Shown: positions 4,648-58,486 of the stretch, in pieces | Numbering within the stretch: position 1 is the first letter of the stretch | Layout of the letters: each line of letters begins with the position of its first letter | NCBI GenBank assembly: GCA_050273025.1 | Contig: CP158635.1 | Span: 11,842,001-11,906,000, forward strand | Source: Cenococcum geophilum | Taxonomy: Eukaryota | Direction: 5' to 3' | DNA length: 64,000 nucleotides | Notes under the pieces: model-generated | What the model was told of the DNA's origin: nothing | Seen by the model: only the letters and a program-made list of their open reading frames with translations | Databases searched by the model: none | Translations under genes and position numbers: made by a program

Positions 4648-4656
4648 AAAAATAAA

Positions 4657-5271: not shown

Positions 5272-5340
5272 TATACCTTTAGTAAATAACTTAAAGATAT
5301 TTTAAATCTTTAAGAATAAAAATAAAGAGGAGGGAGATAG

Positions 5341-5760
5341 TGTTACGGACGCTTTAAGTATAATATTATAACTACTTAGAGAAAAGTTAGAAGAAGCTAG
5401 TTAGTTAATTTAGGCACGGCCTAGAATAAAGCCAATAGAGCTATATAATGAGGAATAGTAACTAAGATTATATAACGTTGTATATAATATATGTAATATA
5501 TAAAGGGAATGTATATATAATATATATAACACGTACCTTACGTATAAAGAGGATTTCTTAGGAGTATAGTTGTGTATTTAAAGGACCACAGTCCCTACCT
5601 AGATAGTTCTCTCCTTTATAGTAAATCTTAGAATATAATTGGAGCTAATCTATTAGGCAACCACTCCACTAGTTATTATTATATTATTAACTTCTTATTT
5701 ACCTATATACCCAGCCCATTAATAAGTCTACCGTAGTTCCTGCTATAAGGCTTTGTTATA
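5341..5760 (+). repeat. 3' LTR of A1 (420 bp)
   Basis: tgttacggac...gttata; matches LTRs at 45591-45993 and 59109-59324. Confidence 0.95.
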
Positions 5761-18230: not shown

Positions 18231-18565
18231 TACCCATCTATGCCTACCTGTCTGTGCCTACCTATCTATGTCACCTTGATTCGATCGATCGATCGAATCG
18301 TTTATCGTGTTCGCTGGCTGGTCGTTCGAACGGTTGTCGTGTGGCTCTGGCGACGGTCGTGTGACGATGACGACGGTCGTCTAGCTCTGGCGACGGTCAT
18401 CTGGCTCCGGCGACGGTCGTCTGCTGGCTGTCGTTCTGGTGTCTTCCTAGGTAGGGAGGATGTAAGGAAGGGTAAAAAATGAGGTGGCTACCTAGGTGTA
18501 TATAGGGGGTATACTTGGCAGAGGCACGTGTAGAGGCTATCGGGAATATAGTGGGGACCCGATGC

Positions 18566-18740
18566 GGAGCTTCGTGTAGAGCCTCGTGTAGAGCTTCGTG
18601 TAGAGCTTCGTGCAGAGCTTCGTGTAGAGCTTCGTGCAGAGCTTCGTGCAGAACTTCGTGTAGAGCTTTGCGCAGAACTTCGTGCAGAGCTTTGTGTAGA
18701 GCTTCGCGCAGAGCTTCAGAACTTTAAACTTTATGTAGAA
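18566..18740. repeat. 12-bp minisatellite (agagcttcgtgy)n
   Basis: Directly visible; longer RIPed counterpart at ~36345-36825. Confidence 0.95.
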
Positions 18741-19268
18741 CTTTAGGAAAAAATTACTAGCATCTAATTTTACTTTTCTGCCATTTTAGCATTTTCTAGC
18801 ATTTAGCAGCTAAATGCTAATACTTAATTATAAATGCGGCATTTGGCGCTAAATGCTAGAAAATGCTAGAAATGCTAGAAAATGCTAAAATGGCAGAAAA
18901 GTAAAATTAGATGCTAGTAAATTTTTTCCTAACGTAAAGAAGATTTTTAGTAGAAAGGTACTTTATAATGCGGCTTATAGCTAGTTCTTTACTAGCGTAG
19001 AACCTTACTTTATCTTTAGTTCCTCCGCTCTTCTTCCACTATAGCTTTTTATAATACCTTTATAATAGAACTAAAATAATAATAATAAAAATTAAATAGG
19101 ATTTACCTTTCTTATTATAAGAGTTTGTTATAAGTTAATCTAGAGGTTATCTTATATAACGCGTTTATAAGCCACTATCCCTATTACCTAAAATAGGTTC
19201 TAATAATAATGTCTTTATTTTAATTTCTTCTAGTTTATAAGCTATTGTCTCTTATATATCTTTTTATT

Positions 19269-20277: not shown

Positions 20278-21398
20278 TATATCTTTTTATTAATAACACT
20301 ATTCGTCTTATCTCTTAGCAGACTGTTTTTACTATATCTTAGCTTTTAGCTTCCGTATCTCTAGCTATTCTTTTATAGCTGCTTTATTCTTATTTTATAA
20401 TACGTTTATAAGTAATAGGATTCCTATTTTATCTCCATTAATAATGCTAACTTCCCGTAATATTCTCTTATAATATTTTATAGTTGTACTACATATCCCC
20501 TAACCAGCGGCGGTGTTATTTTAGTACCACTTTAGACCACCTCTATTGCTCCTACGGTAATCTCTCTAAAGTACTGCCGTTATTGCGTTTACGCGCTTAT
20601 ACTAGACCTGTCCTACGCTTATAAGATATCTTATTCCAATAAAAATAAATCTAAGTATTGTGGTGGTGTGATTTGGCCCCTAGATTTAATATCTAGATTA
20701 GGTATAGCTTTGGGAGAGCCTAGGCCCTCCATAAGTTATATAGATCGGTCTAGAGCCTATAGAGTCTTTAACAACTCGAACAGGCTTAAGGGACACAGAA
20801 TATACTCTTTTCTTCTCTTCTTACTAACTGCTTTCCTACTAATTTCCACTAACTAACTACGACTAACCGACCGACCTAATAGCACTATAACTTCCTTTCT
20901 AAGAGAGACTGCGTATACTACTATATATAGTATTCCACATAGGGACGACGGCAAGCTCTTTAGATTAGAAGTCTAGCGCTATATATATAAAAAACGTATA
21001 GGAACGTGTTACAACTACAGAAGGACTAAAAACTATTAAGTCACCATTACCGGAAGCCGTTAAGTCACTAATAGGTGCGGAAATTAAGCATAGAACTACT
21101 AGCAACGTACGCGTAGGCACTACTATTATTAAGATAAGTTAATAATACTTTTGGAGATTGTTATTTAAGACCTATAGTAGACGGAATAAATAACTAGGAG
21201 TGGGAATGTAAGTATGGGGTACGGCAGGACGGAGGATAAAAGAGAGGGTTATAATACATTAGGACTAGTAGAAAGAAGTCTTAAATTTTTTATTTACTAT
21301 ATTTATAATAGTCTATATAATTCTTCTAGCATTTATATAAGCCTCCCTTAAATTTATAAGAGTAATAGCAATAGGACCAATAAAGGGAATACTAGGGA

Positions 21399-27872: not shown

Positions 27873-27998
27873 CAAAGATATTAGTTCCGCTTACTACCTT
27901 TACTAAGCTAATAGCGATATTCTATCCTGGGGATAGAAAATTATAATTAGTCTATTTAACAATTAGAGCTAGTAGAACACTATGCCGCTACCTAAATT
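27873..27998 (+). promoter_or_regulatory. Conserved non-coding hairpin/CCAAT module, copy in Gypsy E; function unknown
   Basis: First 22 nt identical to 52679-52700 and colinear over ~125 bp. Sits ~100 bp upstream of the extra ORF. Confidence 0.55.
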
Positions 27999-28096
27999 AG
28001 GAAACCCTATTTAAAACTTTACCTTTTTGCCCTTAATAAACCTTAAACATAGCCGTAATTAGTTAAAGTTATAAATTAAACAGAATTAACAATAGT

Positions 28097-30951
28097 ATAT
28101 TTATTATATATTTATTTAGTAGACCTCTAGTACTATATAGGGGGGCTAAGTAATAGATTAGTAACATCCTTACAGAAGTTAGAGGCTTCGCAGTTAATTA
28201 GTATTAGGCAGTGCTCCTCTAAATCTATAATAAAATTCTACTCTCTTAAGAAAACTATGTAGATGCTGCTAATATAGTATTTAATTTTATTAACTAGGAT
28301 AATAGGCTATAAGCATCTCTAGGAAGAAACACGTTCTTATTAATCTTTAAGGACATCTCTAACATTAGTAAGATAGTAAAAGATTAAAGAAATTAGTATA
28401 ATAAAGCTAGAAAAACCATCCGAAAGTCCTAGGGATAAGGTATTCTTAACGGTCTACTTAAATACGTAGTCTTCTACTACTTCCTTTCTACCGCCTAAAA
28501 GCTTACCGTTTACTTACTTTATAAAGCAACGGCACAAGTTAATAAGGCCCTAATTAATAGGCTTAAACATCTAGGACGCGACATTAAGAACACTACTTAA
28601 CTATAGCTAACTAATTTCGCGCTCGCGCTAAAGATACTAAAAAGGGTAGTATTAGACCAGGTGGTAAATAAGTATGGCTTAGGAAGACACTTAACTGGCT
28701 TCCTTATTTTAAATAAGGACCTACCGCTAAGAAGTAAAAGACTAACTACCGTAAGACTAGAGGTTATTAATATCGGAATTAAATAAGTAGGAGAGAGCTT
28801 AGCTCTTATACTGCGAATATATTTATAATATACTTCTAACGTAATAAATCCTTTAGCCTTTTAGCCATTAATATTTGTTTAAGGAGGAGGCGTTAGTATT
28901 ATGCTAAGTCCGTCCCAATAAGAATTACCTATATTAGTTAACTTGCCTTTATTATCTATAAATAAAAGCATTCTCGCAGCTAGAACGCCTGTTAGCTCGC
29001 CCCCGCGGCTACTAGTATCTTTATTAATAAGAAATCCAAGAAGAGGGCTAACGATTGCTTACCCAGAAGTAGAAGGGCTAGGAGTAGAATTAATGTTTAA
29101 TAAAAACGTTATTAAGCTAGGAGATAATATAGAGTATATTAGGGAGGCTGTAGATACTATAGCGGTACTCCGTATAAAATGAGGATATAACTATAAGGAT
29201 AATATACCTACTTATCTTAAGGCGTCCCTAAACTAAACTACTAAAATTAAACCAACTAAGGTAATAAAGCTCCTGCGTAGTTGGCATAGGGCGGCTAGTT
29301 TAGATCTAGAGATATATAAGGTCTGCTAGATATATAAATAAGCAATAGGAGGACGTATAGGTTTAGCAATAAAGGGTTTAAACTACGCTGCACTATGTTG
29401 CAAACTCTGCTTAACATATTATACTTATAACCACCTAAACACTATAAAGATAGACCCTACTACGTACTCTTAGTTTAAAAAGGCTTATAAACCTCTAGTT
29501 CCGTCTAATTCCTTAGGACTATATAAGTTTATTTATAACTTAGCGCTACGGGTTTTATATAATAGAGAGGCTTTACTTAATTAGATAATATTACTAAAAG
29601 ACTAAAAAGTATAGCAGCGAGAAGGATCTGTAATTTTAAACGTATTTAAATAGTAGTAGGATTCTAATATCTTGGCGATAATTAATAAGGAAATATGTAT
29701 ATACCGCCACCATTAGCGTCTAATTAATAGGCGGCTAAATTATAGCTAGTTAAAAATAATGGTCTATAGTCTCTACCAACAGCTAATAAGATAAGACCCT
29801 TAATATTATCGTCTCTATTACGCTCTTAGATCTAATAGCTAGTAGTAACTTATTTCCTACCCTTATTATATAAAATTTGCAGTTAAAGGAAACTCTACAG
29901 CTTTCCGCTATATTAACGTTAATATTCCCTCGCTCCTTAAAAGTGGACATAGTGCCGATATAATTTAAGGGGGCGTTTCTCTAAATAATAAGACTAAGGA
30001 TAACTGCATAATTATCCTACTTAGCATATATTACTACCTAGAATTATAGTAAAAGGATCTTAAGGCGTAAGGATTAACTAAGGGCGATGGATTTATTTAT
30101 AAGATCTTTAACTAAGACTAGATTACTAAAGACGTAGAAAAGTATATAACTAATTAGGTAGCTTAGCCATATAAGAAAGGAGATATGCGTATAACTATAC
30201 CTTACCTTCCTTATAGAGCAATAGGACCTTTAACTAGAACCCAGCGAATAATACTACTATAGTTCGTTAGTATTTAGGATAATTATAATAACCTTAAGGT
30301 TACTAAAGGAGGTACTTAGGTAGAGTTAGTAGATACGCACTAAGACTTAAAAGCGCCGCCCTATACGCCGTCTGGATATGCTAATCTCTATAACGCAATT
30401 TTATATCGCTTCTCTATAGTAGTTAAGCTTATAGCTGCCAGCGCTCTATTAACGCCCTTCTCGGTAAATAATAATAGGATTCTCTAGCGGTAATTTAGGA
30501 TTATAACCTTTCTCTTAATGGTAATAGAAATAAAGTTAGGAAATAGATATATTTTTACTATTTTAGGGCCGTTAAGAATTATAAAGATGCGTTTAAGCTA
30601 ATACGTATAACTAAGATAGAACGCTTTAATAGCCGCTCTTACTTCTACTGCATTAATAATAAAATTAATCCTTTAGCTGTTATAGTAGATCTAAGTAGAG
30701 TGCCCCTAGTTATTATAAAAGGATAGAGTTATATAAAGTTACCTAAAGAATTATAGGACAGAACTAAGCAGATAAAAGGGCGCGAAAGAGCTATATTATC
30801 TAAAAGCGGCCAGTCTAAAGTCTCTTATACTACTTAGCCAAGTAGACGAAAACGGTTTTATTTAACTAGAATAGAGTCTCCTTATTTACTATCTTGGGTT
30901 TATAGTAAGGGTAAGGAACGCATACAATTACTTACCACGCCTTTGTTTTAA
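28097..30951 (+). pseudogene. Accessory ORF of E with a C-terminal 2OG-Fe(II) dioxygenase-like (PhyH/DSBH-type) domain; ends approximate
   Basis: One frame from ~28100 to 30450, then a 1-nt frameshift. De-RIP motifs FR(H)I(D)VN 29903-29923, I(Q)GGVSL(DDE), DNC(T)IIL(PGMH), KKGD(V)RIT(M)P(H)LP(HG)A with the distal His at 30212, and R at 30245. Confidence 0.65.
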
Positions 30952-32050
30952 AGATAAGAAGTTTTAGAGTTTTAGAAGTCGTTAGAGGACAACAACTTAC
31001 GTAGAAGAGGTATATAGTAGTGTAATTTAGCCCCTAGATTTAACATCTAGATTAGGCATAGCTTTAGGAGAGCCTAGGCCTTCTATAAGTTATATAGATC
31101 GGTCTAAAGCCTACAGAGTCTTTAATAACTTAGACAGGCTCAAGGGATACAGAATATACTCTTTTCTTCTCTTCTTACTAACTGCTTTCCTACTGATTTC
31201 CACTAACTAACTACGACCGACCGACCGACCTAATAGCACTATAACTTCCTTTCTAAGAGAGACCGCGTACATCACTACAGTATTCCTATTACTGTAGTAG
31301 GAGAAAGACCTACGTTCTAGTATTTTAAATTTTACTAATTATATTAGATCCCCGCTATTTATACGCGTAAGACTTATAAGCTCTATCGCGCTATTTAGGA
31401 TTTCCACCTATATTTAAATAGCGATAGATAGGAATAGAAGGTATCTACCCTTACTTATAGGCTCTTTAATTTAATAAGGGTTTCTACTATTATAGAGACG
31501 TAATAATCTCGGATATATAGTGTCTAAGAGCGTATATATAAGCAGCTTACCCTTATAAATAATAATATTCGCACCCTTACGCGGGCCTTTTTAGCTAGGT
31601 AAGTTTCTCTAGTAATACGTTTAGGAATTATACTAATTTTCTTAGCTAACGGCTTTTAGATCCCTGCTTAGATACTAATTTAGAACCTAGGGATACTAAG
31701 AATAGTAACAAAAGTTAAAATAAACGTTCTCCTCGCTAGTTTCCCGCCCGTGCTAGGTCTTCTAGCTCCCGTTATAGTAAGAAGAATATTAGTAGAAGTG
31801 CTAATACTTTTAGGGATAAAAGTCCTAATAATACCATTAAAGATAACGTTAAGATAGAAGAGGAGGCTCCTATTACTGCTGCTAGTATTTAAGTTATTAT
31901 CTAGTTCTTCCCTTCTTCTTATAAAATAGCTTTATATAGTGCTTCTTAGGTGCCTCTAAGATGCCCTATTATTAGGAATTAACTTTATATTTTAGGGATG
32001 CCTTTATTCTAAGCTTTGGTAGCAATTTATATAAAGGTAGTGCACTACTA

Positions 32051-32338: not shown

Positions 32339-35300
32339 TGGCTTATTTTAGTACCGTATAGGTTTAATAAAGTGCTTTAGGGTGCTTATATAATAGCGGC
32401 GCGCAACTTAAAACGCGAATATCTTTATTAACCTATAGTCGATTCTTACCATTCTAGTATAAGTAGAAAGCGCTTAGTAGGCTCTACGCATAGCGCTTAA
32501 CGGGTATTAAGAGCGCGGTATTATAGGTAATTAAAAATCGACTATGGATATAGGGTAATATTTATAGTCGCTAAACGCACGGACCTCCTCGCCCGCGTAA
32601 TTATAACTTAGCTGCTAAATCAGCTATATAAATATACCTATAGATATACTATTAGTATTAACTACCCGGCTAATCGTCGGTTAGCTAAAAAATTACGTGT
32701 TTAGCTAGCTACCTAGGTTAGATTTAAGAATCTCTATAGCGCCACTAGCGCTAAGCTAAGGAGATTCGCGTATCTAGGGCCACCTACTAATTAAGCCGCT
32801 AATTAACCCCAACTATAGGGTAATTAGGGGTATTGGGGCCCTAAGTATATATAAAAAAGTCCTCCCTACCTAATCCTTAATCGCGGCAGTATATCTACTA
32901 TTATACCTACTATATAAAATGGCGCTAACCAACCGCGTAGAGATTAATATTGCTGGTAATGCCAAATTATACGCTAACGCGTAGTATATTCTTGTTCTTA
33001 CGCGTATTATAAGGCCTAAAAATATATCTTTAATATACAATCCAAAGCAGAAGGAGTTTAAGGTAATATCCCCCCTCTCCTAAAAGTATCGCGGCCCGCG
33101 GTTAACGCGTTATCTAGCTTTAGGCCTTCTATAAACGGAAGCAGTACTATAACAGTAATACCATTACGGAGGATAAGCTACTTTTTTTCCTTATTAAGGA
33201 GGTTGCAAGCCGGCCCTTAAAAGGGAAGAGCTGTAAAGCCAATATTAACGTACCCTAAGAGGAGATACGGCTCTCGTAGCGGTTAGTTTATAGCTATATT
33301 ACCACTCTAATAGACCTTTATTAAATATAGAAAGCTATAGAAATAAACAGCCACCTATTTTCGTAAGAGGATAGTATTAGGGAGTACCTAAAGACGCTAC
33401 AGTAGAGGGACGCGCAGCGTAAGAAAGAGCAGTTTGCTAATAAGGGTAGAGATACCCTCCTTAATGGCTATACTAAGGACGAGTTCTAAAGCGTTTACTA
33501 TAAGCTTTAAGCTAGGGGCGCCGCCTTATCCTTAGAGTGCTACTTCCGCACGCTTATTAATATCATACTAGGCCACTATATACTTACCCGCGGCGGTAAT
33601 AAACGCTCTACTAAGATCTTAGATCTATTTACCTTTAAGTTTAAGGGTAAAAGCCCTACACGCTATATGCCCTTAATATTTACTATACGCGTAGGTAAGT
33701 AGAACTAGTATAGCCGCCTTAAAACTATTAAGGCCCTATAGAACAGAAAGCCGCTTATTTATATATTTAGCAGGCTAGCTTTCTATCTCTTATACTACTA
33801 GGATTTTAGTACAGAGCCGTTTCTAGACTTTAGTAGGCGCTTAGTATAGTATAATATACGCCTAATTAAGAGTGGTAGGGACTGTAAGGCGGCCTTTTTA
33901 TATAACTTATAGCGAGATTAGGTCGTAAAGGCCTTCTAGTATATTAGCGTCTTCTTAGAGAAGAAGACGTATATTAGGCGGAGCGCTAACGCTAAGACAG
34001 CGGAGCTAAAGGGGGTTAACGAGGACTAGATTCGGCATGCTAGGAGGTAAAACTAAGAGCAGATAGTAGGCTATTACTTAAACTATCTCCTATAAGAGTT
34101 TATAAGGTTAATAGTAGGGCACCCCTTATAGATAGGCTGCTTTAAAATCCGCCGTACGGGTATTACGCCGCCTAATGTACTGCTATTAACAATATAGCCT
34201 AAACTAGATAAATAGAAGAGCCGTTTTAGCCCGCAGCTATATTAGATTAATAACCTTGCCGCTACAGGGGTTATAAACCTTCTCTTTTACCTCCGTAAGG
34301 TTATTTTATAAAATTTAGTAGCCCTCTATAAGATATTCCTAAGCTATCTAGTATAGAGCTACCCTATTTTTTAGTATAAGGCGTATAAGGCCTTCGCGTA
34401 GGATCTAAAGCCCTACCTATAGGAAGAGGGGAGCCTAAATTAGCTGTTAATTTTCTACTAGGCTATACTACTCCTTATTAACTAACTAAAGGCTTTACGC
34501 GCTAAATATAAGCAGATAGCTAGCAAGGTTAAGGGCTTATTAGATTATCTAGATAAGTCCTAGTAGGCCTAGTCTTTATAGCTTTAATTACTAACGTCTA
34601 GAGGCCTTACATTTTAACTAAAAGCCCCTTTAGCTATAGCTATAGCTACGGCTATAATATAGCCTTAGGGCTGGTCTACTAACCCCCTATATCTACCTAT
34701 AGAAGCGGCCCCTTTAGCTCTATTTATTACGGAATCTAGTAGATATACATCCGCCTAGGTAAGCGCTATAGGCTCTCCTTCTCATATAGCTTCGCCACCG
34801 CTACTACCGCCACCACTACCGCCACTACTACCGCTATAGCCGCTGCTATAGCCGTAGCTAAAGCCTAGGTCTAGGTCTCCACCTATATACTATATAAGCC
34901 GCGTGGTAAACTCTATATAGGCCCTTTAGCGTAAGTAGACTAAAGGGCTAGGAGGCAATCCTTTTATAGTAGCGCTAGATTCTAAATAGGGTAGTAAATA
35001 GCGGGCCGGCCAATAAAAGGAGGTTTAATAGTACTCCCTATAACTTAAGGTTATTAAGGAGATTAAGCGGATTATATAGGTCTAGAAGGTTAACGAGGAA
35101 GCGGCTATATAGTAGGTTAATCTACGGTAGGAGTAAATGCAGTGCTTACTAAATTAGCTTTATAAATAGCTTTAAGCAGGTAAAAAAGCTTTAAAATAGT
35201 TATATATATTATCTATATCTAACTTCTAATAAGATACTAAGAGGTCCTCTATTAAAACCTTTATCTATAGCCCTCTAGTGGCTTATTTTAGTGCCGTATA

Positions 35301-35594: not shown

Positions 35595-36830
35595 CTTACT
35601 TTAAGTCAAAAGTATTGCTCTTCCTACGCAGTTAGTGTAAAATAAATTATATTATTTTAGATAATTTAATATAATATAGCGATGGTTCTTTTTTACTTAC
35701 CTACCTATTAACCTACTCACCCACCTACCTACCTACCTACTTACCTATCTACCTACCTACCTATCTACCTACCTACCTACCTATCTGCCTACCTACCTAT
35801 CTATTTATCTATCTGTCTGTTTATACCTACCTATACCTACCTATTTATAACTACTATCTATACCTACCTATCTGTACCTTCTGTCTATACCTACTGTCTA
35901 TATTTACCTATTTATGCCTACCTATTTATAATTTAGGGGAAGGGCCGGCCTAATTAAAGGCTCTGCCTAATTTAATTAATTAATTAATTATTTTAATTTA
36001 AATCGTTCTCTACGGCCGTTTGCTAGCTGTATATTTAAACGGTAGTTATCTAGGGTGCCTCCCTAGGAGGCCTTAATTTGATTTAGTGATAGGCTAATAT
36101 TAAAGCTCTAGCTTAATTCAATTAATCGATTAATTGGGTCGTTCGCGGCGTTCGCTAGCTGGTTATTTAAACGGTAATCGTCTAGTTCTAGTAATAGTCC
36201 TCTACTAGCTGCCGTTCTAGTACCTTTTTAGGTAGGGAGGATGTAAGGAAAGAAGGAAGGGTAAAAAATAAGGTGGCTATATAGGGGTATACTTAGTAGA
36301 GGTATATGTAGAGGCTATTAGGAATATAGTAGGGACCTAATACGGAGCTTCGTGTAGAGCCTCCGTACGTAGAGCTTTGTATAGAGCCTCCATATATAAA
36401 GCTTTGCGTAAAGCCTTATACAGAGCCTTTGTACGTAGAGCTTTATATAAAGCCTTATATAGAGCCTTATATAGAGCTTTATATAAGAGCTTTATATAGA
36501 GCTTTATATAGAGCTTCGTATAGAGCTTTATGCAGAGCTTTATATAGAGCTTCGTATAAAACTTTGTACAGAACTTTATATAGAACTTCGTGCGAAGCTT
36601 CGTGTAGAGCTTTGTATAGAACTTCGTGTAGAACTTTATGCGGAGCTTTGTGTAGAGCTTTGTGTAAAACTTTATATAGAACTTCGTATAGAGCTTTGTG
36701 TAGAGCTTTGTGTAAAACTTTATATAAAACTTCGTGTAGAGTTTTATGTAGAGCTTTGTGTAGAACTTCGTGCAGAACTTTGTGTAGAACTTTATATAGA
36801 GCTTTATATAGAGCTTTATACGGAACTAGC
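35595..36830. repeat. Repeat block (unique linker, CCTA microsatellite, 12-bp minisatellite) homologous to the cargo of the TIR element at 17961-18745
   Basis: agtattrctcttcctacgcagtt...ggtagggaggatgtaaggaa...ggagcttcgtgtagagcc occur in the same order at both loci. Confidence 0.9.
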
Positions 36831-37433
36831 CTAGTTATAGTAAGAATATCTTAGTAAAATACTTAATAGATAAATTCTGCCAAGTTCTACTAACTTAATT
36901 AAACTTTACTAAATTCTACCAAAACGAACGCTTTAGTAAAATTAACGCTTAACTAAATTCTGCCGAATTCTGCTAGCTTAATTAACTCCTACTAAGTTTT
37001 ATTAAGTTCTGCCAGATTTTACCAAAGTTTATTAAGGACTATGTGCGTATATATATACGCATGCTATAAGGTAAGGATATAGATAGGGAGTCCAATAATA
37101 GAATAATAGGTATATTGTATAGATAAAGACAAATCCTTAGGGGAAAAGGAGGAGTCTATATGCGAGGTAGAAAGGGTTTTCCCTAGGTATATATAAAGCA
37201 CGTACCTTATAGGTAAGTCACCCCTAGGGTTGCCTATACCTTACGGCTATATAACTATCTACTTAGGTTTTACCTAATAATGCTCTCCTTTTTAAAAAGG
37301 GTCGTCCCTAATCCTTTTTATGCTTAAGCCTTAATAAAACCCTATAAAAAACCTTAGTAAGGAAAAAATTTAAAGGGAAAAGAGTGTTTTAATTTTGTAT
37401 ATAGAGAGATGGGTAGTATATATACGTGGCGCG

Positions 37434-37609
37434 AAGATATTAAGGAACTTTAACTGGTAGTTAAAGTTATTTAATTAGTTAGATTTGCCTTACTAAGACT
37501 CCCCCGTATTTAACTAAGGTAATAGCGATTTTATATACCTAGTATAGAAAATCCTAATTGGTTTATTTAATAGGTAGAGCTAGTAGAGCTTAATACCGTC
37601 GCTTAAATT
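37434..37609 (+). promoter_or_regulatory. Conserved non-coding module, copy in Gypsy F (second palindromic sub-module 37434-37499; core 37510-37609)
   Basis: atagaaaatcctaattgg is identical to 52740-52757, with colinear flanks. Confidence 0.55.
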
Positions 37610-39891
37610 TAATAGACTAGAAATATTCTAAAAGCTTACTTATATAGGTAGGTCACTAGTACCTTATAGGTTAGTTATAGGTTATTTATATATAGCCAGA
37701 TTTATAAATAGTAAGGTTATATACCTATTAAATCCGCCACTAACCCTACTTTAGCCTTACGCTATACTGGCGTAGCGCTATATATACTTCGTAGGTAGGT
37801 TATAGGTTACTTATATATAGCTAGGTTTAGGACAGTAAGGCTATATACCTGTTAAATCTACCGCTAACCCATACTTTAGCCTTATGCATTATTTATATAG
37901 CATATACCTGGAATAGTATAAGTTATTAGTATAGGTTACTACTAGTGGGTTACTAGTAGGTTATAAACTCTAGTTAAATAGACCCTAGTTATAAACGGGC
38001 CTATTCTTTAATATATAAATAATCTGCTTAGCTAGTATAGAGTAATAGACTAGGTTTAGAAAAGGTGCTTTTTAGATTAAGCTTTATTGCTAGTATACGC
38101 CGTAGCCTCGCCTATAAGCCACCAGCATTACTAGGTTATATTAGAGTGTAGCTTATATAGAATATTAATAAATTAAAACTTTACCCTATATATACGCCGC
38201 AGTTCTTATAATAATCGTTACTTATTCTCTAATCCCTTAGGATATCCTCTACTCTACTTTAATATAGGTTATATTTTAACAGCGGCGCTTACTTTTCGCC
38301 TACGCTTTAGCTATAAGGCTAGGGTATCCTACTTACGGTACTTATCTAATAGTTATTAACAATTCTTAAGTTCTGTCTCATATTTCTATTTATTATACTT
38401 ATTTAGCTATCCTAGCTATTTAATAAGGTACTACGGTTATCTAGTACAATTTTAGTGGGTAATAATTACTTCTACTTCCTAGCTACCTTCCTTAAGCTCT
38501 TTTACTACTAAGGGTTAAAACCTAGGGCGTAACCTATAAGGCTCTAGTAGGGAGATATAAAAGACTAGGTAGAGCTATACTATAGTAAATAGGAGCTCTA
38601 GCTTATATACTTACTGCCCTATACACTCTAGGATCTAAAACAGTTCTATAAACTTATAGTTAAGCTTTTTAAAAGGACGTTTTATGTGGATATTCTTAGA
38701 GGAGAGTAGAACTCGTTTACTAACGGTAAAATACTTAGCCAGATAGTGACGATTATAGTATTTTACCTAAAGCTATTAGGCGTACATTATTAACGCCGTC
38801 GCTACCTTATATATAAGGCGCAGGCGTTATAGATATATCTCTATAAGTTTAACATTTGTTAACTTAGACCCCTCCCTACCTTACTAGGCGTCTTAAACGC
38901 CGTCTGGGACTCTATCTAGGACGTTTGTAGCTAGCTATAGGCGAGCTTAATAGGGGAACGCTTTATTATGGTATAGACCTTAGAGTTATAGGCGAAGGCT
39001 ATTTCTTTAAGTAGGGAGGCCTAATTAGACTGTTCCTAGTTTGTAAATATATATAGGTATACCTTAAGCTCCTAGTTTTAACACTCTGTTTAACTATTTA
39101 TTTATAGGTAGAATATAATACTAAGTTTACGTTAAACGCGGAGATAGTAGTATATAGTGCTTTAGTACTCGCTTGTAAATATACTACCCCTATTAAAGAT
39201 AATATTATTTAGAGGCCCTATTTACATAAAGACTCTAAATAAGAGTTTTATAAGTTGCGTAGCATTAATTATCTTATATACTAGATAATAGCGTACTAGC
39301 TTTATAAAACGGTCTATAAGGATAAAAACGGAGTTATACTTTACGCTATTAGGAGTCTTAGACTCCAGGAGATCTATAATAAAGTTAAGTAAATAATGCT
39401 GTTAGGCTTAGGTGGGGACCTAGAAAGGCTATAGCTCGCTATAAGGTTTATAACGGCGCAATTTAGAGCGTTAGTAGGCATTATAATTATCTAGGTATTT
39501 ACGGAGGTCCTAGGTAAGGCCATTTTAAGTATACTTTTACGCAATTACCTTAAAAGTATGGTTAAAACTATAGTGGCCGCCTACAGGATTATTATAATTC
39601 CGCTTAAGGATCTCCTATTATAGTAATATATAATTTAGCACCTAGACCTTATTATTTTACCTTAAGAGTCCTTAATTATTAAGGGTATAGTCCTTATTAC
39701 TAGTAGGAACTTATCCTTAAGTTAACTAATTATATATAAAGCGTATAAAGGCGTCCCTTTTTTATACTTTATAAATAAAATTAACTAGTAACTTAGGGGG
39801 TTATTCCATAAACGCCGTTTTAGTTAAAGTAGCTACTACTACCTCTTACCGTGGCACAAGACTCTATATAAAGTTAGTGCTAGCAAAGTAA

Positions 39892-41686
39892 TATCACGGG
39901 ACTCACACGCTCTCACGTCCCTGCGCGTTTTAACATTCTTAACCCGTGCTTACATTCGTCCCAAGATACCTACGCACGTTCCCCTATAACCCCTATTTAT
40001 ACCCGACCTGGTATATAAAGAATCTTCTTCTTTATCCAAATGTCTTTATATCAACCACGCATAGTTACGCGTACGTAGCCTTCTTTAATTACTACCCTGT
40101 TTAGTACATTGTATTCCAGCTTATACCCACTTCCGTAACACTATATTTAGATCCCTTTTTAACGTACCTAGCGGGCCTGTGGGCTACTAGTCGCGGAGCA
40201 TGCCTTTTTACGCCTATGGGGTAGATACAGGAGCTGCTGGCTACGGGTAGACTAGGACGCTAGGGTTCTGAACTGGTACGACAAGTCTCCGCGCCAATTT
40301 GCATACGGACCCGATAACAAGACACCACGCCAATACGCCTGCGACCTCGATGGCTTGCACCCTACTACTACCGCTTACAAACAGGCACGTTACTACCCCT
40401 CAGTTTAACCTAATAGCTCGCATCCTACTGCTACACAAACACAAACACGAACACGGAAGCTAGTATCTTACTACTGTCCTACCGACCTGCACGCACTACC
40501 CTACGTACCGACAAGACTTTGCGCTGCTACGCCTGCAAAATAAACCTAATAACCTATTATGCCGATAAGCCTACAACCTAACCCGAATACGACTAGGTAG
40601 AGCCTCGCTCCCTAGACCCCCGAACCCGTCGCTTATATTATACTACTGCCTAAACCAACAAGCCTCGTGCCGATACGCCTACGAGCCGAACACAACTAGG
40701 TAGAGCCTCGCTCCCTAGACCCCTAAACCCGTCGCTTGCATCGTACTACTACCTAAACCAACAAGCCTCGTGCCGATACGCCTACAAGATGCCCCATTGC
40801 TGGCACCGTACTACTACCATATAAACTAATAAGCTCCGTGCCGATTCGCCTACGGAACCTAAACACGTCGCTAGCACCGTACTGCTACCCAAATCTAATA
40901 AGATCCTGTGCCGATATGCCTACGGAACCTACGCTGGCACTATACTACCACCGACAAGAACCTACCTATAATACGAATACTGCACTATACTAATAAGAAC
41001 CTGCCAAGAATATGCCTTACTACGACCACAAACACCGTACTAACCGTACTATACTGCCGTTTAGGCCGATAAATACTACCTAAAACGCCCATTTTGGACC
41101 AAAAATTAGGGTAATTTTTTAGGGGGACCTAGAGTATAGGAAGGGAAGGCTATAGAGCTGCTAGAAGTAAGAAAGGGACTATATAAGCTTTAGCAATGCG
41201 TCTCTAAGCGGCGAGGATAGGAGTATAGCTGGCGATAGAAGCTGGGCTATGCTTTAGGCCTAACAAGTTAGTGGCCTAACGATTAAATATAGAAGGACCG
41301 AACTAGAGGAGCCTGTATAACGGAGGACGTAAAAGGGCGAAGAAGGCTAACAAATTTTTTTTTTCCCGTATTAGGTTTTTTTCTGGTATATATAACACGA
41401 CATGCCTCGCAGGAGCTCGGAAGTAAGGGGGGGGTACTGTCACGGGACTCACACGCTCTTACGTCCCTGCGTATTTTAACGTTCTTAACCCATACTTACG
41501 TTCGTCCCGAGACACCTACGCACGTTCCCCTATAACCTCTATTTATACCCGACCTGGCACATAAAGAATCTTCTTCTTTATCCAAATGTCTTTATATTAA
41601 CCACGCATAGTTACGCGTACATAGCCTTCTTCAATTACTACCCTATTTAGTACATTGTATTCCAGCTCGTGCCTACTTCCGTAACA
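39892..41686 (+). mobile_element. Non-autonomous LTR element H (TRIM/LARD-like, 1795 bp) inserted in F pol
   Basis: 249 bp LTRs at 39892-40140 and 41438-41686, TSD agtaa, G-rich PPT ending ggggtac. Non-coding interior with tandem repeats. Confidence 0.92.
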
Positions 41687-44600: not shown

Positions 44601-47600
44601 TAAGTAATTACTCTATATAGCGGATTTCGTTAAAGAGGTCTTTAGCAGTTTTTACTCGTTAGGCGAAGTTCTGGCAGAAGAGCTCTACTTATAGGTAGAC
44701 TAGAAGATATAAGAACTAAAAGTCTACCTATTATTTAGGATTGACAAAAGGGGTATATAAGAAGAGGTCCTCTAAGCTATATATACGGGCTAGGAAGACG
44801 TTAAACCTCTAGTTCTCCTTTATAATAGCTATATAGTATATTATAGCGTTATTAAAGCGTCTTACTATAGGGTTTCTAATCTAGTCTTAGACTATAGTCT
44901 TAAATTCGTCCTATAGTAAAGGACCTTTATCCTTAGTACCTAACCGGCTATAAACTAGTTAGCTAATTGTCTTCTCTTTTATAAGACCTTTAATAGCCTA
45001 GCGCGTGCGTCGTTTATAGTTATAGTTAGCGTTATTAACCTTAAATTGGTTCTTAACTGCAGCAATCCACTAGTTAAGATGCTGTTAAGTAGTACTGCTA
45101 ATATTAGGTAGTGACTTCTTAACTAGGGCGTTAAGATTTGTTTAGCGTATACGTTTACTATATAACTTATACTCTTTACTAAAAAGGCAACAGGAGGGCT
45201 TTATTAAATCAATAATGCTCTATAAGTTGGCTATTTTCTTAGCTAGCTCATTTAGCTCCTTTATATTAGCAGTATTAGGTAAAACACTAGTAACCTTACT
45301 AAGCTTCTATTGAGCCTAGGTATATAAGTTAAACTAGTCTTTAGTATTTATAGATGTCTAATCATTTTAAGGTTTAGAAGGTGGCTTAAATTCTACTAAT
45401 ATACTTCTAACGGTTTCGTCTACACTAAATCTTAAGGCGTTTTGCAGTCGCATCGCTAGCGTATTACCGTTAGGTGTAGGCATCGGTTTTCTTTTTAGAG
45501 GCATTATAGAAAAATTAAACCGGCTATCCTCTTAAGGGGATTAGTAAGGATTTAAATATAAGGTAAGGATGTAGATAGGGAGTCTAATAATGTTACGGAC
45601 GCTTTAAGTACAATGTTACGACTACTTAGAGAGGAGTCGGAAGAAGCTAGTTAGTTAATTTAGGCATGGTCCAGAATAGAGCCGATAGAGCCATATAACA
45701 AGGAATGGTAGCTAAAGTCATATAATATAATCTATATAATCCGTAATAGAGTAGATAAAACGTATATACCTTACGTATAAAGGGGATTTCTTAGGAGTAC
45801 GGTTGTGTATTTAAAGGACTATAGTCCCTACCTAGATAGTTCTCTCCTTTGTAGTAAATCTTAGAATATAATTGGAGTTAATCTGTTAGGTAACCACTCT
45901 ACTAGTTATTATTACGTTGTTGACTTCTTATTTGCCTATATACCCAGCCTATTAATAAGTCCACCGTAGTTCCTACTACAAGGCTTCGTTATATATTTAC
46001 TACTAAGGTTATAGTATTAACAAAGTCAAATAATATGCCACTAAAAGCACTAGCTATAACGCCATCGACGGCGGCAACTACTTTAAGATTAGGTAACGAC
46101 ACTAGTATAGTAGATACTAACTTATAGTAACCTATAACGGTTAGACAACTATAAGAGATAGTTAACTAGTTAACATAAAATAATGCGATATTAGAAAATA
46201 GGATTAATAGGATAAGAGTAGTAAAAATTAAGCTACTATTAATTAAAAGGTACTTAGGGGAAAGGTTAAAACTTAAAGGATTCCTTATATAAATGTACTT
46301 TAAAGTTACGCAAGAAGGAGTAAAGCTGCTAACACCTATAGATTAAATAGCATATGTGGGACTATTCCTATTAGAAAGGGCACTTAAGTAGTTTAAACTT
46401 TACCTTACGGAAATATAAGTGAATGGTATAATAACCACTAATTAAGAAGTATGGTTTATATTTATAAGCTAGGAAGGGTTTATAGAATAACTAATATAGA
46501 TATTTAGAGACCCGGAGGCAGTAACTACAGTAAAAAGAAAACTCTAAAATATTATATAACGAACCTTAGTAATTAAGTATATAACGCAGTTCTAAATATT
46601 AGTGATATAAGTAGAGTAGAATAATAAGGCGCTTATAGCATAGTATAAACAGGGACTTAAGGCTAAAGTCTAGGACGCGATTATCCTAATAGAAGATATA
46701 AACACCCTAAGGGAACTAATAAATTAGGCGATTAAGGTTAATAATTGGATCTACTAAAGGGAATAGGCTAAGAGAGGCTAGGATAGAGTTCTATAGTTAT
46801 ATAAGGCGTAAAGCACGCAACAACTAAAGCTAAGTTAAAAACTATAGTATAGCGCAGAGTTAATAGACCTAAGTAGTACTAAAGAATCTAAGAAATAAAA
46901 TAAAAAATTATAGAAACCTAAAGGATAAGGATTAAGTAATTAGAGGTCTAAGGAGTAGAGGCTAAACCAGGAATCTTAATAGCAGAAGACGTTTAGGCGG
47001 ACTTTATAGCAAGAAAAATGGTTTAAAGAAGGAGCTTATATAAATTACGGAAAATAGGGTTACTATATTAGAGACTATAGAAGTAGGCAGAGTTACTATA
47101 TAATAAAGGGCATAAGACTAGTAGACAATATACACGTATAAAGGGATAATAATATACTATAAGGAATAAAAGAATGTTTAATTAAAATCTTTGCGTTTTA
47201 TTATAATAACGCTAAGTATAGCGTAAGCTATTAGCTATAAGAGCTAGCACCTATAGGATATAGAGGAACTAATAAACTAGTTCGCAGATTGGATATTAAG
47301 GATAATAACTTTAACGTAGGCAAAATATTTTATAACAATAAGGCGATAAAGGCCGCTTACTAGAAGTAAGTAGACCTTAAAAATATTATATAAGAGGTAG
47401 AGGATAATTCCACTATAAAATAGGGAACATTAGTAGGGATTAAGACCCCACTAGATATAATATCTATCGCTTTATAAGACGTAAGAGAAGTAGGATAGCG
47501 AACTACTTTGGCACTTAATAAAAGCAAAAGGCTATAAGCTTAAGATTCTTAAGACAAGATAAGGTAAGCTTAAGGACCTATAATAGACAATAACCGATAG

Positions 47601-52372: not shown

Positions 52373-55300
52373 TATTAGTGTTATAGGGTAACTTACCAAT
52401 ACTACTTGAATAGACATAGTAAATGTTGGTTGCAAAGCTTGTTGTTTAAAATTAGGGGGTAGGTGAGGAACCTAAGGTTCCTTACCACGCTAGTGCCGCG
52501 GCGACACGTAACAACACATGACAACCACTTGCCTCATTCCCAACACTAGCAACTCTTCTTTTGTAGTTGCCATCTATATACACTTATAGATTACTACTAT
52601 ATAAAGATATAAAGCTAAGGAAAAGAAGAAGAAGAAATAAAGGGGAAAAGGTAGCGTAGGTAGATGTACGGGTTCGTGCAAAGATATTAGTTCCGCTTAC
52701 CGCTCTTAGCCGAGCCAATAGCAATTTTTTATCCTAGGGATAGAAAATCCTAATTGGCTAGCTCAATAAATAGCGTTGGCAGAACTCCACACCGCTACCC
52801 GAATTAATTAGGCGTAGCGCTCTTGGCAAGAATCTAACCAATTAAACAACTTTAACCGGTGGTTAAAGTTCCATAAAATCTTAACTTCTCTAAATTTCCC
52901 TCTTAACCTAACCTTTAACTCGTATATATAGAGTATTTATATTAACAAACGTCTCTAGTGCCTTATTTAGGTTTGCCTTTGTTATTACATCTACTAGGTT
53001 ATCTTGGCCATTAATTTATTAGATCTTAAAGAGTTCTTAATACTTATAGGACTGCTAAAGTGCTATAATATCGATTATAAGGCGCTTTTCCTTTATAGTA
53101 CTAAGCTTAATTAAATACTTATAGAGGGAATATAAGTTAGTGCACACGATTATAGGGATAATAGGAAGTTTAAGTCAATCTATAATTATCTTAAGGGTAG
53201 TTCCAATTACAATTGCTATATTAACTCCACTAACTATTCTATATATCTCTAACGCTAGAACGCTTTAAGTAACGCGTTTACTCTTAATTAAGCTCTAATA
53301 GATAAGATTACCGTAGATTATAAAATCATTCTCTTTAGTAAATTCGTTCGCTATAATAATTTTATATCCTAGCTGGGAGCTAAAATCTTTATTATTTGCA
53401 AACGATCTATTAACAAATACAAATAGCTTGGCGGTAGGAAGATTAATAGGCACGTAGAGTAGTCCCTAATTAAGATAGTTTATTTGCTAGAAAAGACACT
53501 TATTCAGGTTAAAAACATTATCCTTAGTTAGTTCCTGGTATTAGGCAGTAATAGAGAGATTAAAGGAAGCTTTAGGTTAACAGATAGAAGCCACATAAGC
53601 TCTATAAGCGCGTTGCTCCACATATCCTTGCTTTAGAGAATTAACATTAATAATATTAATCTTCTTGCCTTAACCTTTCTGGCGTAGGGCAATAGAATCC
53701 TTATTTAGGGAAATAATGCATCTATTAAAGAGTAATGGTGTTATTAAATCAAGTCTTTCCTTTGGCTTTGCCATAAGGTTTACCTTTACTAGCTCATCTT
53801 CTTTAAGAGCTGAGAATTGGTCGTCTCCTAAGATAATTATATTATCTATTTATATGCCAACGATTCCAAATAGAGTTCCTGTGGCTGTAATAAGGAAGTA
53901 GGGATTAAATATAGAAGTAGTTATCAAAAGCTTCTCTTTGTAGTGCTTGCTGTAAATAGCCCACTAATGAGTTCCTGCCTCTATAATTCTATATAGTGGC
54001 TTAAGCATAACTATAATTGTATCTTCGGGATATTAGTGGCGAATTTGCTCTGGAAGGTATACTAGTATTAAGCGCTAAAGGCGTATCTTTAATTGGGTAT
54101 AGGCCTAGGTAATATCTTATAAATAAACTACTATTCTACTCTTTATTAAGGAGGGAGCTAGCGTAATAATAACTCGCTAACTAGCTCATTAAATTGTGGG
54201 AGATTGCGTAAGAATTACCTCCTTACTATTATCGTTATAACCTTAGATAATAAGCCTTAATTTCTTAAATAGGGCGTTAGTAGCTTTGCCCTTAATCTCG
54301 TTAACTATTTTTAACTTAAAGATGCGAACTCTATTAAACTTAGTAGGGTTATATTTCTTAAATTTAAAGACTCCTCTTATAATAAGACCGTTAATCTTCT
54401 GTTTATTAGATGCTTGGAAAGGAGCTCCTAGAGTTATAATACGGCCTTCTTTTTGGAGCTGTTTTGCGAGCTTAAAGTTATCCTTCTCTTTAGCTGTTAT
54501 AAAAGCTATTAATAACTCGTCTTCACTCTTAATAGCAGTAATAAATTGCTCTTTAAAATCTATAAGATATTAGCGATTCTATAATCCCTTCGGGCGACCT
54601 CTACCACGTCGTAATTACGGCACGTCTACTACAATTATATTAGAATCGTTATCACCTTCTAAAGCACGTTGATCGTAGTTCTCCTTTAGGGTATTCTCTA
54701 GGGCATCCTATAAAGGCTCGGAGCTATTATTTTTATAGTAGGGCTTAACAACAGTTAAGCGGAATTAAGTGGGTCTATGGGGCATCTAGAGAGTGTAGGT
54801 TTGACTATTAATTATAATAAGTTTATATAGGCCTAACCATCCTCCCTTTTTACGCTATACGCGTACCTCAGATTAGAGCGGTAGATTAAGCGTAGTTAAG
54901 GTGTTTGGGCCATTTCTTATTCCTAGTACGTTGTTGACCTAGCGCGTAGCGTAGAGACGTCACACCTCCTTTATTACTTTACGGATAGCCTTAGCTTATT
55001 ACACAATAGAGGGAGATAGTAGAGAATTATTAGTTATTTAAGGGTAGGCGCCAAAGACTAGCAACGTGGGTACGAGCCTATTTGGACTAGCGGAATCGTT
55101 AACAGCCTTAACAGCCATCTATAAGATAAGCTCTTCGCTAGCGTCCTCTAGTTCTAAAGAAATAATCTTATATACTCGGCGTAATAGTATATAGTATCGT
55201 TTTACTTTTCTAACGCTATTATATGCCTTAATAAGGACTTCCTTAACCTTAATTTCTATTGCCTTTACCTATTACCAAAACTCTGCAGATAAGAAGTTCC

Positions 55301-58300
55301 TTTCTACGTTATAAATAATTCAATTAGGGGGTCCTAGGTAGATATTAATCTAGCATAATTAGAGAGTATCCTATACGTTCCTAGCTAATATATCCTTTAG
55401 GAAGCGTGCGGCTTAGAAGGATATTAAGAAGTTAACAACTTAAAGTACTAGCTTGCCGCTAAGATATATAATGTTAATAATAATACAGAAGTTAAAGTTA
55501 TAGTTATCTTTAAGGGTAAACTTAAATCGGCTAGGGGACTTCTAGTTTATTTAGTAGTAATAGCAGTACTTTATAAGATGCTCAATTATCTTAACCTTAA
55601 CTTTATAACCTACTCGCTAAAAAACCCTAAGCAGTTAGTAAATAGATAGGTAGCCAAAACGACGGTGTAGTTAACGTAGCTCTAACTCGGTTAAGTAGCT
55701 TTAAGTAATACTCCTTTCTAGCTGTTAAAGGAGCAACTAAGGGTGACCCCACTTACGTATAACGGGCACCTAATTATCTCCCTAAATAAGTATATTCTTA
55801 AGGTTATTAAGCTTAACGCCTAATTTATCTATATTTTGGATACAGAATAGAAACGGGGTGTTCGCGGAAATAATGTAGAAAATAATATATCCTAATGGGG
55901 TTTAGACCTTAATTGTGCCAAGAGAGATTATAGTACCCTTACTAAAGCGAATTGTATATTAGCCTGCCGTTAATTAGTTAATCTAAACAGAGCTATTAAG
56001 CTGCTAAAGAGCTCGTACTTAAGGTTCTCCTGCTATAGATACTCCTGCGGCTTTAGTATCTAGTATAATACTATAGAAGACGTTTACTAAGTATCTGTCA
56101 TTAAATAAGAACACGGAACTCTCCCTTAGCTTATTAAAAATATCTAACTTTGTAATAGAATAAAGTGTAGATTAGTCGTTAAGAATAGCAATAGTTTATG
56201 TGCCATCTACCTTACCAAACTCGGTAAAGTATTGGTTGGAAGGGTAGTCCTTAATTTCCATATCTATAAGGAGTTGTTTGGCCTTATTAACCTTACCCTT
56301 AAGATCTTTTACACCTTTATATTAAACCAGGAAGCTTTAGAAGTAGGCCGTAGTAACCTTATAGTTTCTAACATTTCTTACACTCTGGCGAAACTTATTA
56401 TATGCCTCTTTTTATCTGTTAAAAGGGTGCCTAGTTAACTAGCAATTTAGCTTCTTACAAATGTAATACTTCTTCTAGCGATTACTTTGAAATAAACCTC
56501 TATAAGGACCTCCACAATTACTTTATAGTCGGCGTTAATCGTACCCTTTACCGTATCCCCTACCACAATATATTTAATCAGTCCAGTTATAGTTATGTTA
56601 ATTATTTAGGTTAATTAAAGTAGGTTAGGGTTAGGCGTTAAATTACTGCACTTTTTAAGAACGTAGAGCGGTGCTAATAAAGGATCTTAATTAAGCATAT
56701 ACTCCTTTGTAAGTATTTATAGGATTAAAAAGAGTAAGGTTGCATTCTTTAACACCTTAGCATACGCTAATAACTTAATCGTGTAGGCTAAAGTCCTCTT
56801 AATATAATTCGGATAAACCACGCTAAATCGTCTAAAGTTAATTAAAGAGCTTTTAAAGACAATCAAGCTAAGAAACACCTAGGTTTATAGCAATAATCCT
56901 TAGGAAGATAGTCTCTCTCTATTCCGACATATACTATTACTTATTCTCTTCTATTTTAAAGTAGTATCTTAACTCATATATCATACGGTTAAAATTATAC
57001 CCTTTTCCTACTAAACGATTATAGTAAAAGGTGCTAGCGCGGCCTTTAAGCATAACGGAATAGGCGTTATAATATTGGTTAGGTTCTAGTCCTACCTTCT
57101 AGTAACAGTTATAAAAGATACGTAGCTTTAAATTAAGGATATTATACAGCTCCCCGCCAAACTTCTTTTCCTAGTCTGAATAGAGCTTTATAAGATCTAT
57201 AAGCAACTTTAAGATGCCTCCAAGTGGCGCTAAGTTGGGTTAAGATTGCATTATAGGCTGTAGTAGGGATGTAGAGCTTAATGGAACAGAGTATGGTACT
57301 TAATCTTACTGTAGAAGAGTTTAAAGGTTATTAAGTCGCGAAGTAGGGGGTTCTAAAGCAATAGAACTAGAGCACGTCTCTAGTAGCATATTGCTTGGAT
57401 TCCATCATAAGTTAAGCTTCTTCATAATACGTAGTTAGTACTTAATCTCTTATAGAGTCTATTTATGTTCTTCTTTTACTTCAATAATATGCTCCTAAAT
57501 ATTATCTCCAATACCTCCCCCATCTATAGGGATAAATACTCTATACTCCTAAAGGAAGTTACGGAAGTCCCGCACGAGATCTTTATATATAGGAACCTAT
57601 ATTTCCTTTATCTATTTAACAAAGTCCTCCTTTATACAATACCATAGCATAGTGTTATTGTATTTGCTGTCTTTATAGTATGCTATGCGGTATAATAAGA
57701 ATCTATTTAGCTCCTTTTACTCAGCAGTTATAAAGTCGGTTATAGGTCTATCCTATATCTCCGGGTTAATATCTTTCTTATACTTCTTTAGATAGGTCAA
57801 CGCTATAATAACAGTTGTTTAATATATAGAGAGTGTTAAGAATATAGGGATAGCATACTAGCAGAACTTTAATAGTCTGGCAAAGCTAAAATTATTATAA
57901 AGTAAGGGCGCGCTAATACTACCTTAGATGCTAATAGAGGAGTATAAGGGCTAGAGAGCGCGTTATTAACGTAATTTTAACGTGGTAGGGCCGCTAGGAA
58001 CGTGGCAGAGTGTTAAGAGTATTATTTTTAACGCGTTTCAGACGTTAACTTAGGACCTTAGGTTTAGTGACACTTCTAACCTAAAGTACTCGACTAAATC
58101 TTCGTAAATATAGTTATTCTGCGTAATAGACGCAACTTAGTATCTCCTAGTACTTAGTAACACTTCTATTACTAGTTTTCCGCAAGTCTAAGGTAGCACA
58201 GTATTACCGGGATCCATTCCATATAAGCGTATATGGCACCCCTATATAAGACTGTCTCTTCTGTTAAAAACCTTACTATTCTATAGTTAACTGTATATTT

Positions 58301-58486
58301 AACCACTGATTAGTGTTAGTGTCATAGGGTAACTCACCAATGCTACTCGAGTAGACATAGTGAATGTTGGTTGTAAAGCTTATTGTTTAGAATTAGGGGG
58401 TGTGTAAGGAACCTAAGGTTCCTCACTACGCTAGTGCCGCGGCGACACGTGACGACACGTGACGACCGCTTGCCTCATTCCCGACA
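52373..58486 (-). mobile_element. Full-length Ty1/Copia element G (6114 bp)
   Basis: 173 bp LTRs at 52373-52545 and 58314-58486, TSD attac, empty site in A1. Protease (MP)DT(G)AA ~56060, integrase ~55200-55500, RT VG(MQT)D(DT) ~53850, RNase H FV(DG)SFANNKDFSSQLG ~53400. Confidence 0.95.
52679..52882 (+). promoter_or_regulatory. Conserved non-coding module, least-mutated copy in Copia G (core 52679-52805; sub-module 52820-52882)
   Basis: Homologous to the copies in E and F. Contains agccaat...attggct inverted arms and the palindrome aactttaacc-ggt-ggttaaagtt. Confidence 0.55.

Follow-up and report, generated by a model that had tools for sequence, protein, structure and literature searches.

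Why should three LTR retrotransposons that appear to have nothing else in common, two of them Gypsy and one Copia, carry the same non-coding stretch between pol and the 3' LTR? LTR families are usually regarded as distinct lineages, sequence exchange being confined to close kin, and the question is raised by a 64,000-nucleotide stretch of DNA (G000:C1:11842001-11906000, hereafter the window) from a genome of 178 Mb in 7 contigs. The window is made of nested repeats, with a strong RIP signature throughout. Element G (52373-58486) has 173-bp LTRs and a 5-bp target duplication; its pol is Copia-type and lies on the minus strand, with a RIP-broken RT/RNase H region (52896..55358, minus strand; 70% to P0104, RVT_2), and the module lies outside its 3' LTR (52373..52545, minus strand, 173 bp). 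G is itself inserted within a copy of another Gypsy element (the nesting stretches are 85-5555, 47742-59324, 39888-41686 and 45587-45993 of the window). The pol of F is Gypsy and also on the minus strand, the module again lying outside the 3' LTR (37065..37280, minus strand, about 220 bp); an LTR insertion of 1.8 kb lies within F, whose 5' LTR is interrupted at 45591 by a further element. The LTRs of E lie near 20663-20923 and 31017-31277. Its pol, on the plus strand, was recognised by eye from translations and gave no Pfam match and no tblastn match to the Gypsy reference P0018; we take E to be Gypsy, partly on motifs assumed to be characteristic of that superfamily. Beyond the module, E has an extra broken ORF region (28200-30500, plus strand), previously labelled dioxygenase-like, which has no Pfam match and to which the sequence of a low-RIP relative of E (L115) is unrelated. 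Elsewhere in the window are tandem arrays of an unrelated repeat family (36850-37000, 36340-36830 and 18416-18935) and, at 33202-34401 on the plus strand, a RIP-broken gene with an NDC10_II match (Pfam PF16787, E 7.6e-43), presumably part of a Crypton-like recombinase element.

The three colinear copies are real. Self-blastn of the window recovers the E/G match (27873-27999 versus 52679-52806; 76%, E 6e-16) and the E/F match (27899-27976 versus 37510-37587; 79%, E 4e-12), and the longest exact words are those reported by the first-pass annotation, 22 nt for E/G (27873/52679) and 18 nt for F/G (37544/52740). The module does run in the same sense as pol in E (pol on plus) and opposite to it in F and G (pol on minus), and the three elements are otherwise unrelated, in that whole-element blastn and tblastx, the latter with its sensitivity among E, F and G lowered by RIP, match in the module region only. 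Where we part from that annotation is in the extent of what is shared. The length of ~125 bp given for all three holds for E and G, F sharing only about 80–100 bp, and what was described as one 125-bp module of three families is instead a 43-bp core with interchangeable flanks, found in about ten lineages. A RIP-tolerant pattern for this core matches the window at exactly the three sites and gives 0.8 matches per shuffled window; many LTR families of the window are without it.

The unit common to all carriers is a 43-bp dyad in which two inverted CCAAT boxes, 33 bp apart, enclose a palindrome, the order being CCAAT box, 13-bp arm, centre, 13-bp arm, inverted CCAAT box. The inverted repeat with opposed CCAAT boxes had been deduced by undoing RIP on paper, and un-RIPed copies bear it out, with perfect 13-bp arms around one base; a natural example is CCAATAGCGATTTTCCATCCCGGGGATGGAAAATCCTGATTGG at G000:C1:8754857. 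In E the dyad is RIP-damaged and lies at 27908..27950 (plus strand), with what we call the A side first on the sense strand of the element; in F (37519..37561, minus strand, about 240 bp inside the 3' LTR boundary) and in G (52715..52757, minus strand) the B side comes first on the sense strand. A GGCAG/CTGCC hairpin, also attributed to the module, does not survive comparison: it is a 4-of-5 match, and CTGCC stands there in none of 60 E and G copies (CTGCT in 1, with 3 unparsed). The inner 27-bp palindrome is intact at 198 places and the CCAAT frame is found at 361, with 0 for the reversed control in both cases, and the centre of the frame is 15 bases long at all 50 of 50 places among the matches listed.

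The alignment behind the following counts comprises 111 oriented loci, namely 79 from metagenomes (of 80 with long flanks, L159 having been dropped as a chance match in which the inner palindrome is missing), 29 from the source genome and the 3 window copies; 10 of the own-genome loci repeat counted places, so that about 101 sites stand behind the 111 loci. The inner 15 bases, which the search pattern leaves free, are near-invariant apart from RIP. The symmetric pair 19/25 exists in two states, in 59 and 52 loci, and is discordant in 0 of 111; this is the only compensated pair and represents a single two-allele event, not independent covariation. One-arm changes not due to RIP are found at position 29 in 8 of the 111 loci and at positions 17 and 27 in 1 locus each, and the centre base flips among loci. 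The dyad folds into a long stem or hairpin on either strand. Around it the flanks are modular: a crude clustering gives 19 types on one side, and the other side has two main types. At the two positions preceding the B-side CCAAT box, which are outside the search pattern, purines stand in 109 of the 111 loci and in 18 of the 19 flank types, types that may share descent and hence do not amount to 19 independent tests. A small hairpin in the B flank has a G-U closing pair only on the B-first strand. The tandem array at 36850-37000 contains 10-bp TTCTGCC direct repeats similar to ones that lineages K and M have in their B flanks, and such repeats are possibly another shared factor site.

Far from being absent from other copies of its families, the core is fixed among copies chosen by pol sequence alone, being present in 20/20 for E (the first 20 of 39 non-self matches), 23/29 for F and 28/29 for G; the 7 misses are insertions, truncations or large deletions, and 0 are clean empty sites. 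It is carried by about ten pol lineages, five Copia and five Gypsy. The Copia carriers G, I, N and J are 40–61% identical in RT/RNase H, and the Gypsy carriers H/K, P, Q and F 26–38% identical in integrase; E and a Copia lineage M are further carriers, M having an SH3_retrovirus match and being assigned partly on what we take to be RNase H motifs. Lineages N and Q are, among the matches listed, found only in metagenome loci. Beside one core-carrying M insertion lies a fragment (L116:3742-3945) that lacks a Pfam match and that we take from its motif to be a hAT-like transposase; a hAT context for this core was considered and rejected, the core belonging to the Copia element, whose RNase H ends beside it. 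Two low-RIP, pol-less relatives of E (L114:1902-8412 and L115:1853-8334) keep the module, and relatives of theirs are present in RNA runs. A separate GC-rich LTR element (L120:4582-8416) shows little RIP; its LTRs are 97% identical, its interior has tandem repeats, and the minus strand holds an open frame of 428 aa. The metagenome scan yielded at least 125 loci, all but one of which, among the matches listed, look like RIP-marked relatives of the same families; in the few that were compared, long stretches that align with own-genome families do so at 67–89%. The CCAAT frame had 0 matches among viral contigs, as did the inner palindrome among prokaryote genomes, and the range so far is one fungal lineage.

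In most loci with a pol match on that side, the core lies 26–250 bp past the end of the reference pol match (tblastn). Three lineages, E, Copia J and Copia M, have the cassette in inverted orientation with respect to pol. The core is outside the LTR in E, F, G and the other lineages apart from Gypsy H and K. In Gypsy H the core occupies positions 38-80 inside both 229-bp LTRs, that is, U3, in elements with LTR pairs at 93% and 97%, 5-bp target duplications and a PPT before the 3' copy; Gypsy K likewise has it in U3 of both LTRs. The core of H and K stands upstream of a CT-rich stretch in an LTR with no clear TATA box. Relative to the PPT, the core comes before it in F, G, I and P and after it in H and K.

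Which sequences share more than the core is informative as to how it came to be so widely distributed. The cassette of E (27873..27999, plus strand), consisting of a type-2 A flank, the core and a B flank, is common to E, G and Gypsy P. Between G and P the common block extends to 219 bp (52678..52896, minus strand), with second palindrome, B flank, core and type-2 A flank in the same order; it starts where the match of G to the reference pol ends, and outside these coordinates G/P similarity drops to background. Compared in a RIP-blind fashion, the central 127 bp of G are 98% identical to Gypsy P, whether the comparison is with metagenome copies or with a P-like copy of the source genome (L111:5222), versus 93–94% to the E types, 75–80% to the sister subfamilies of G, whose pol is 80–82% identical to that of G, and 67% for random pairs. 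Because 15 of 17 G-lineage loci have the other flank type, we infer transfer from a P-like Gypsy to G as the simpler direction. Both alleles of the 19/25 pair co-occur in 8 of 10 lineages, E included, with Q and F having one each, and this argues for repeated exchange. The proposal that a portable element is exchanged across superfamilies is thus upheld, in that the cassette of a Copia element is nearer to a Gypsy than to its own sisters and both alleles recur across lineages. The 125-bp E/G match is apparently one recent cassette swap within a larger shuffling system, the shared extent varying by pair (127 bp for E/G, 219 bp for G/P and about 47 bp for G/H). At one locus (L173) the dyad axis is the junction between a type-1 flank and a type-2 flank in reverse complement, and at two others (L277 and L285) the CCAAT box is where the A flank is fused to the second block described below. 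G also has a CT-rich stretch (52583..52636, minus strand), lying between the module and its 3' LTR, with 82% similarity to the Gypsy H LTR at positions 142-195, as though its own LTR were preceded by a piece of a foreign one. The LTR of Gypsy P (L200 and L204, after the module) has a type-1 flank motif next to an inverted CCAAT-like box.

The second block, absent from the earlier description, is a further combination of CCAAT box and palindrome common to F and G, lying on opposite sides of the module in the two and inverted between them. It is found in G at 52831..52882 (plus strand), with a CCAAT box (52838-52842) and a 23-bp palindrome (52848-52870), and in F at 37434..37485 (minus strand), with the palindrome at 37446-37468 and a CCAAT box, the block as a whole being inverted relative to G. 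In F, G and P the block is found together with the core, and at other places by itself. Its palindrome is unrelated to that of the core; with the first C of CCAAT taken as base 1, the dyad centre falls on base 22 in both blocks. A 182-bp LTR family, R, also has the block in U3, about 20 nt ahead of a TATA box. The family R LTR (L270:1429-1610 and L271:1429-1610) contains a CACGTG box, a GCCAAG-type motif, the CCAAT box, the 23-bp palindrome and the TATA box, and the centre of its palindrome varies among G, C, T and TG.

The reading that we favour, and hold to be somewhat more probable than its negation, is that the core would be a DNA enhancer or promoter cassette for the CCAAT complex and a putative dimer, traded among families by recombination. 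The two inverted CCAAT boxes would bind two CCAAT-binding complexes (HapB/C/E, the fungal NF-Y), and a predicted homodimer would bind the palindrome between them. From its place after pol the cassette could act as an orientation-independent 3' enhancer, a chromatin opener or an internal promoter. Families would gain and reshuffle it by recombination or gene conversion through short shared homology, a molecular route suggested by the flank swaps, the inversions and the transfer between Gypsy P and Copia G. We favour this reading because Gypsy H and K have the core in the U3 region of each LTR, because family R has the second block in U3 with a TATA box downstream and the same dyad-centre spacing, and because the type-1 flank motif recurs in the Gypsy P LTR. 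It is favoured as well by the purines that precede the B-side box in nearly all loci, by the inversion of the cassette relative to pol in three lineages, by the near-invariance of the inner 15 bases across lineages whose pol is 26–61% identical, and by the toleration of two non-RIP one-arm changes. The fit of the CCAAT boxes to the fungal consensus, given as CCAATVR in the available text of PMC7144946, argues in the same direction, and all three boxes, two in the core and one in the second block, fit it when CA-to-TA RIP is allowed for. Of the DNA-level promoter or enhancer put forward at the outset, then, the U3 position, the consensus fit and the inversions make it the favoured option, its function being a prediction. 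PacC, velvet and Zn2Cys6 sites are what we take to be look-alikes for the palindrome or the GCCAAG motif.

Several observations weigh against this favoured reading. Enhancers 5–6 kb downstream of a promoter are unusual in fungi, the core folds into a hairpin on either strand, the H/K LTR has no clear TATA box, the core is missing from many LTR families of the window, and its high identity could stem from recent conversion and not from selection. The core itself is also present in RNA reads, on the sense strand and without a sharp start site. In L115 the core at 4990 is covered by 24 sense-strand raw RNA reads with 13 starts, and in the one raw-read run sense depth is 0.4–2.1 before the module and 11–16.5 from the module onwards; these reads come from relatives (504 of 541 fit partly and 476 of 541 are only 90–95% alike), and no start site is seen. 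Such a step in depth suits an internal promoter near the module, relatives sharing only the 3' half, or a role at the level of RNA. Three contigs from RNA runs (X1, X4 and X8) cross the core and show its presence, as distinct from starts or strand.

In the last of these roles the genomic RNA would carry the hairpin in its 3' UTR, where a host protein acting in export, stability or packaging would bind it, a reading modelled on the 3' transport elements of retroviruses. Every position of the core, whether after pol or in U3 of the 3' LTR, falls in the 3' part of the genomic RNA, and the long stem on either strand, the always compensated state of the single variable pair, the sense reads and RNA-run contigs that cross the core, and the G-U closure of the B-flank hairpin only on the B-first strand would all fit such a role. 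We nonetheless judge it decidedly improbable: the inversion in three lineages alters the loop and bulge sequences, the compensated pair counts as one event, one-arm changes give A-C or C-C mismatches on the sense strand (L143, L234 and the H subfamily), the purines before CCAAT are kept though unpaired in several folds, and there is no Rfam match. A structural signal acting on the cDNA or in reverse transcription, as a pause, in strand transfer or in plus-strand processing near the PPT, would account for the core never being more than a few hundred bases from the PPT/3' LTR junction, and Sireviruses, in the available text of PMC2829016, have an inverted repeat at that same junction. This we regard as very improbable, given that the core precedes the PPT in four lineages and follows it in H and K, that its distance and orientation vary, and that enzymes as far apart as those of Copia and Gypsy would not require an identical 43-mer. 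Least credible, and largely refuted, is the idea that each family acquired a SINE, MITE or small RNA gene by an insertion of its own. The recurrence of one sequence with an internal palindrome in unrelated host elements might suggest it, but the differing extents of the pairwise matches leave no common ends, family alignments show no terminal repeats or target duplication around the module, and clean empty sites are lacking among the pol-picked misses. Nor does the small RNA gene suggested earlier find support, Rfam giving 3 chance matches far below gathering on 52300-53200 (a RIPed copy) and ARAGORN 0 tRNAs in 5 loci; a ribozyme or other known RNA was rejected on the same Rfam result.

A different challenge to the control cassette comes from supposing that the module benefits its carriers little and spreads on its own account, the palindrome extruding, or stalling replication or reverse transcription, and being repaired from another copy, so that it homogenises and spreads while the CCAAT boxes survive from the single LTR in which it arose. 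The presence of both 19/25 alleles in most lineages with no discordant locus, the switching of flanks at the core (across the axis in L173, at the CCAAT box in L277 and L285) and the flipping of the centre base are all as this would predict. Against it, conversion needs prior homology, which leaves unexplained both the first gain in each lineage and the regular position of the core right behind pol or in U3; for extrusion, 13-bp arms are on the short side, and there is a second, unrelated palindrome with identical CCAAT geometry. We consider it unlikely, if worth keeping in view. The control cassette and self-driven spread could also be combined: Copia and Gypsy families of one fungal lineage might depend on one host-factor cassette whose palindrome drives its own conversion, in effect a homing enhancer evolving apart from its carriers, an idea that we offer tentatively and think doubtful.

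The module, then, is real, non-random and broader than first described. If a control cassette does move between Copia and Gypsy, one host signal could switch on unrelated families together, and such joint switching could help to explain a large, repeat-driven genome; the defined 43-bp sequence is usable for finding the host factor. If the module is instead a passenger, it still records repeated recombination across superfamilies.

The searched literature, in which subscription papers are mostly outside coverage, described neither this module nor any cis-cassette that Copia and Gypsy trade with each other; several known systems do bear comparison. The bipartite CBC:HapX site, CSAAT-N12-RWT in the available text of PMC7144946, resembles the cassette in joining a CCAAT box to a partner site at fixed distance in a filamentous fungus; the core was rejected as such a site, the three bases after CCAAT-N12 being TCC or TGC on both sides and not RWT. 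The conserved non-coding hairpin (CHS) of GalEa elements is common to distant families within one species, but differs, in what is available of the 2017 account (PMC5445492), in standing directly after the 5' LTR, in its 9-bp arms (CHSeq1/CHSeq2) and in replacing the PBS. The module, by contrast, is at the 3' end and also in Gypsy and was rejected as a CHS; G has a separate CHSeq1-like 9-mer (58305..58313, minus strand) directly after its 5' LTR, which apparently marks it as a GalEa-type Copia. Also comparable are the RM boxes of Sireviruses (Bousios et al. 2010, PMC2829016), which the available text describes as palindromic non-coding sequences kept among very divergent LTR retrotransposons, with a proposed regulatory role. 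They share with the module their symmetry and a place upstream of the LTR promoter, and are also found before an extra ORF after pol; the same text has them as multi-copy, with a CGG-CCG core, and confined to one plant Copia genus, whereas the module is a single 43-bp twin-CCAAT dyad, spans Copia and Gypsy and lies mostly outside the LTR. With one copy per site and centres of CC-N-GG and CCG-N-CGG, it was rejected as an RM box. In the proposed manner of its working, the cassette would resemble ERV-9/LTR12 and other mammalian LTRs, in which, according to the available text of PMC12065363, NF-Y-bound CCAAT boxes with a partner site at fixed geometry form enhancers also in closed chromatin. Those modules are mammalian, their partner sites vary per family and their binding is shown, whereas binding of the CCAAT complex to the fungal cassette is a prediction, and that text does not report them as one cassette traded between superfamilies. 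The kind of element found here is already known, namely the LTR control module; what is unusual is its repeated crossing of superfamilies.
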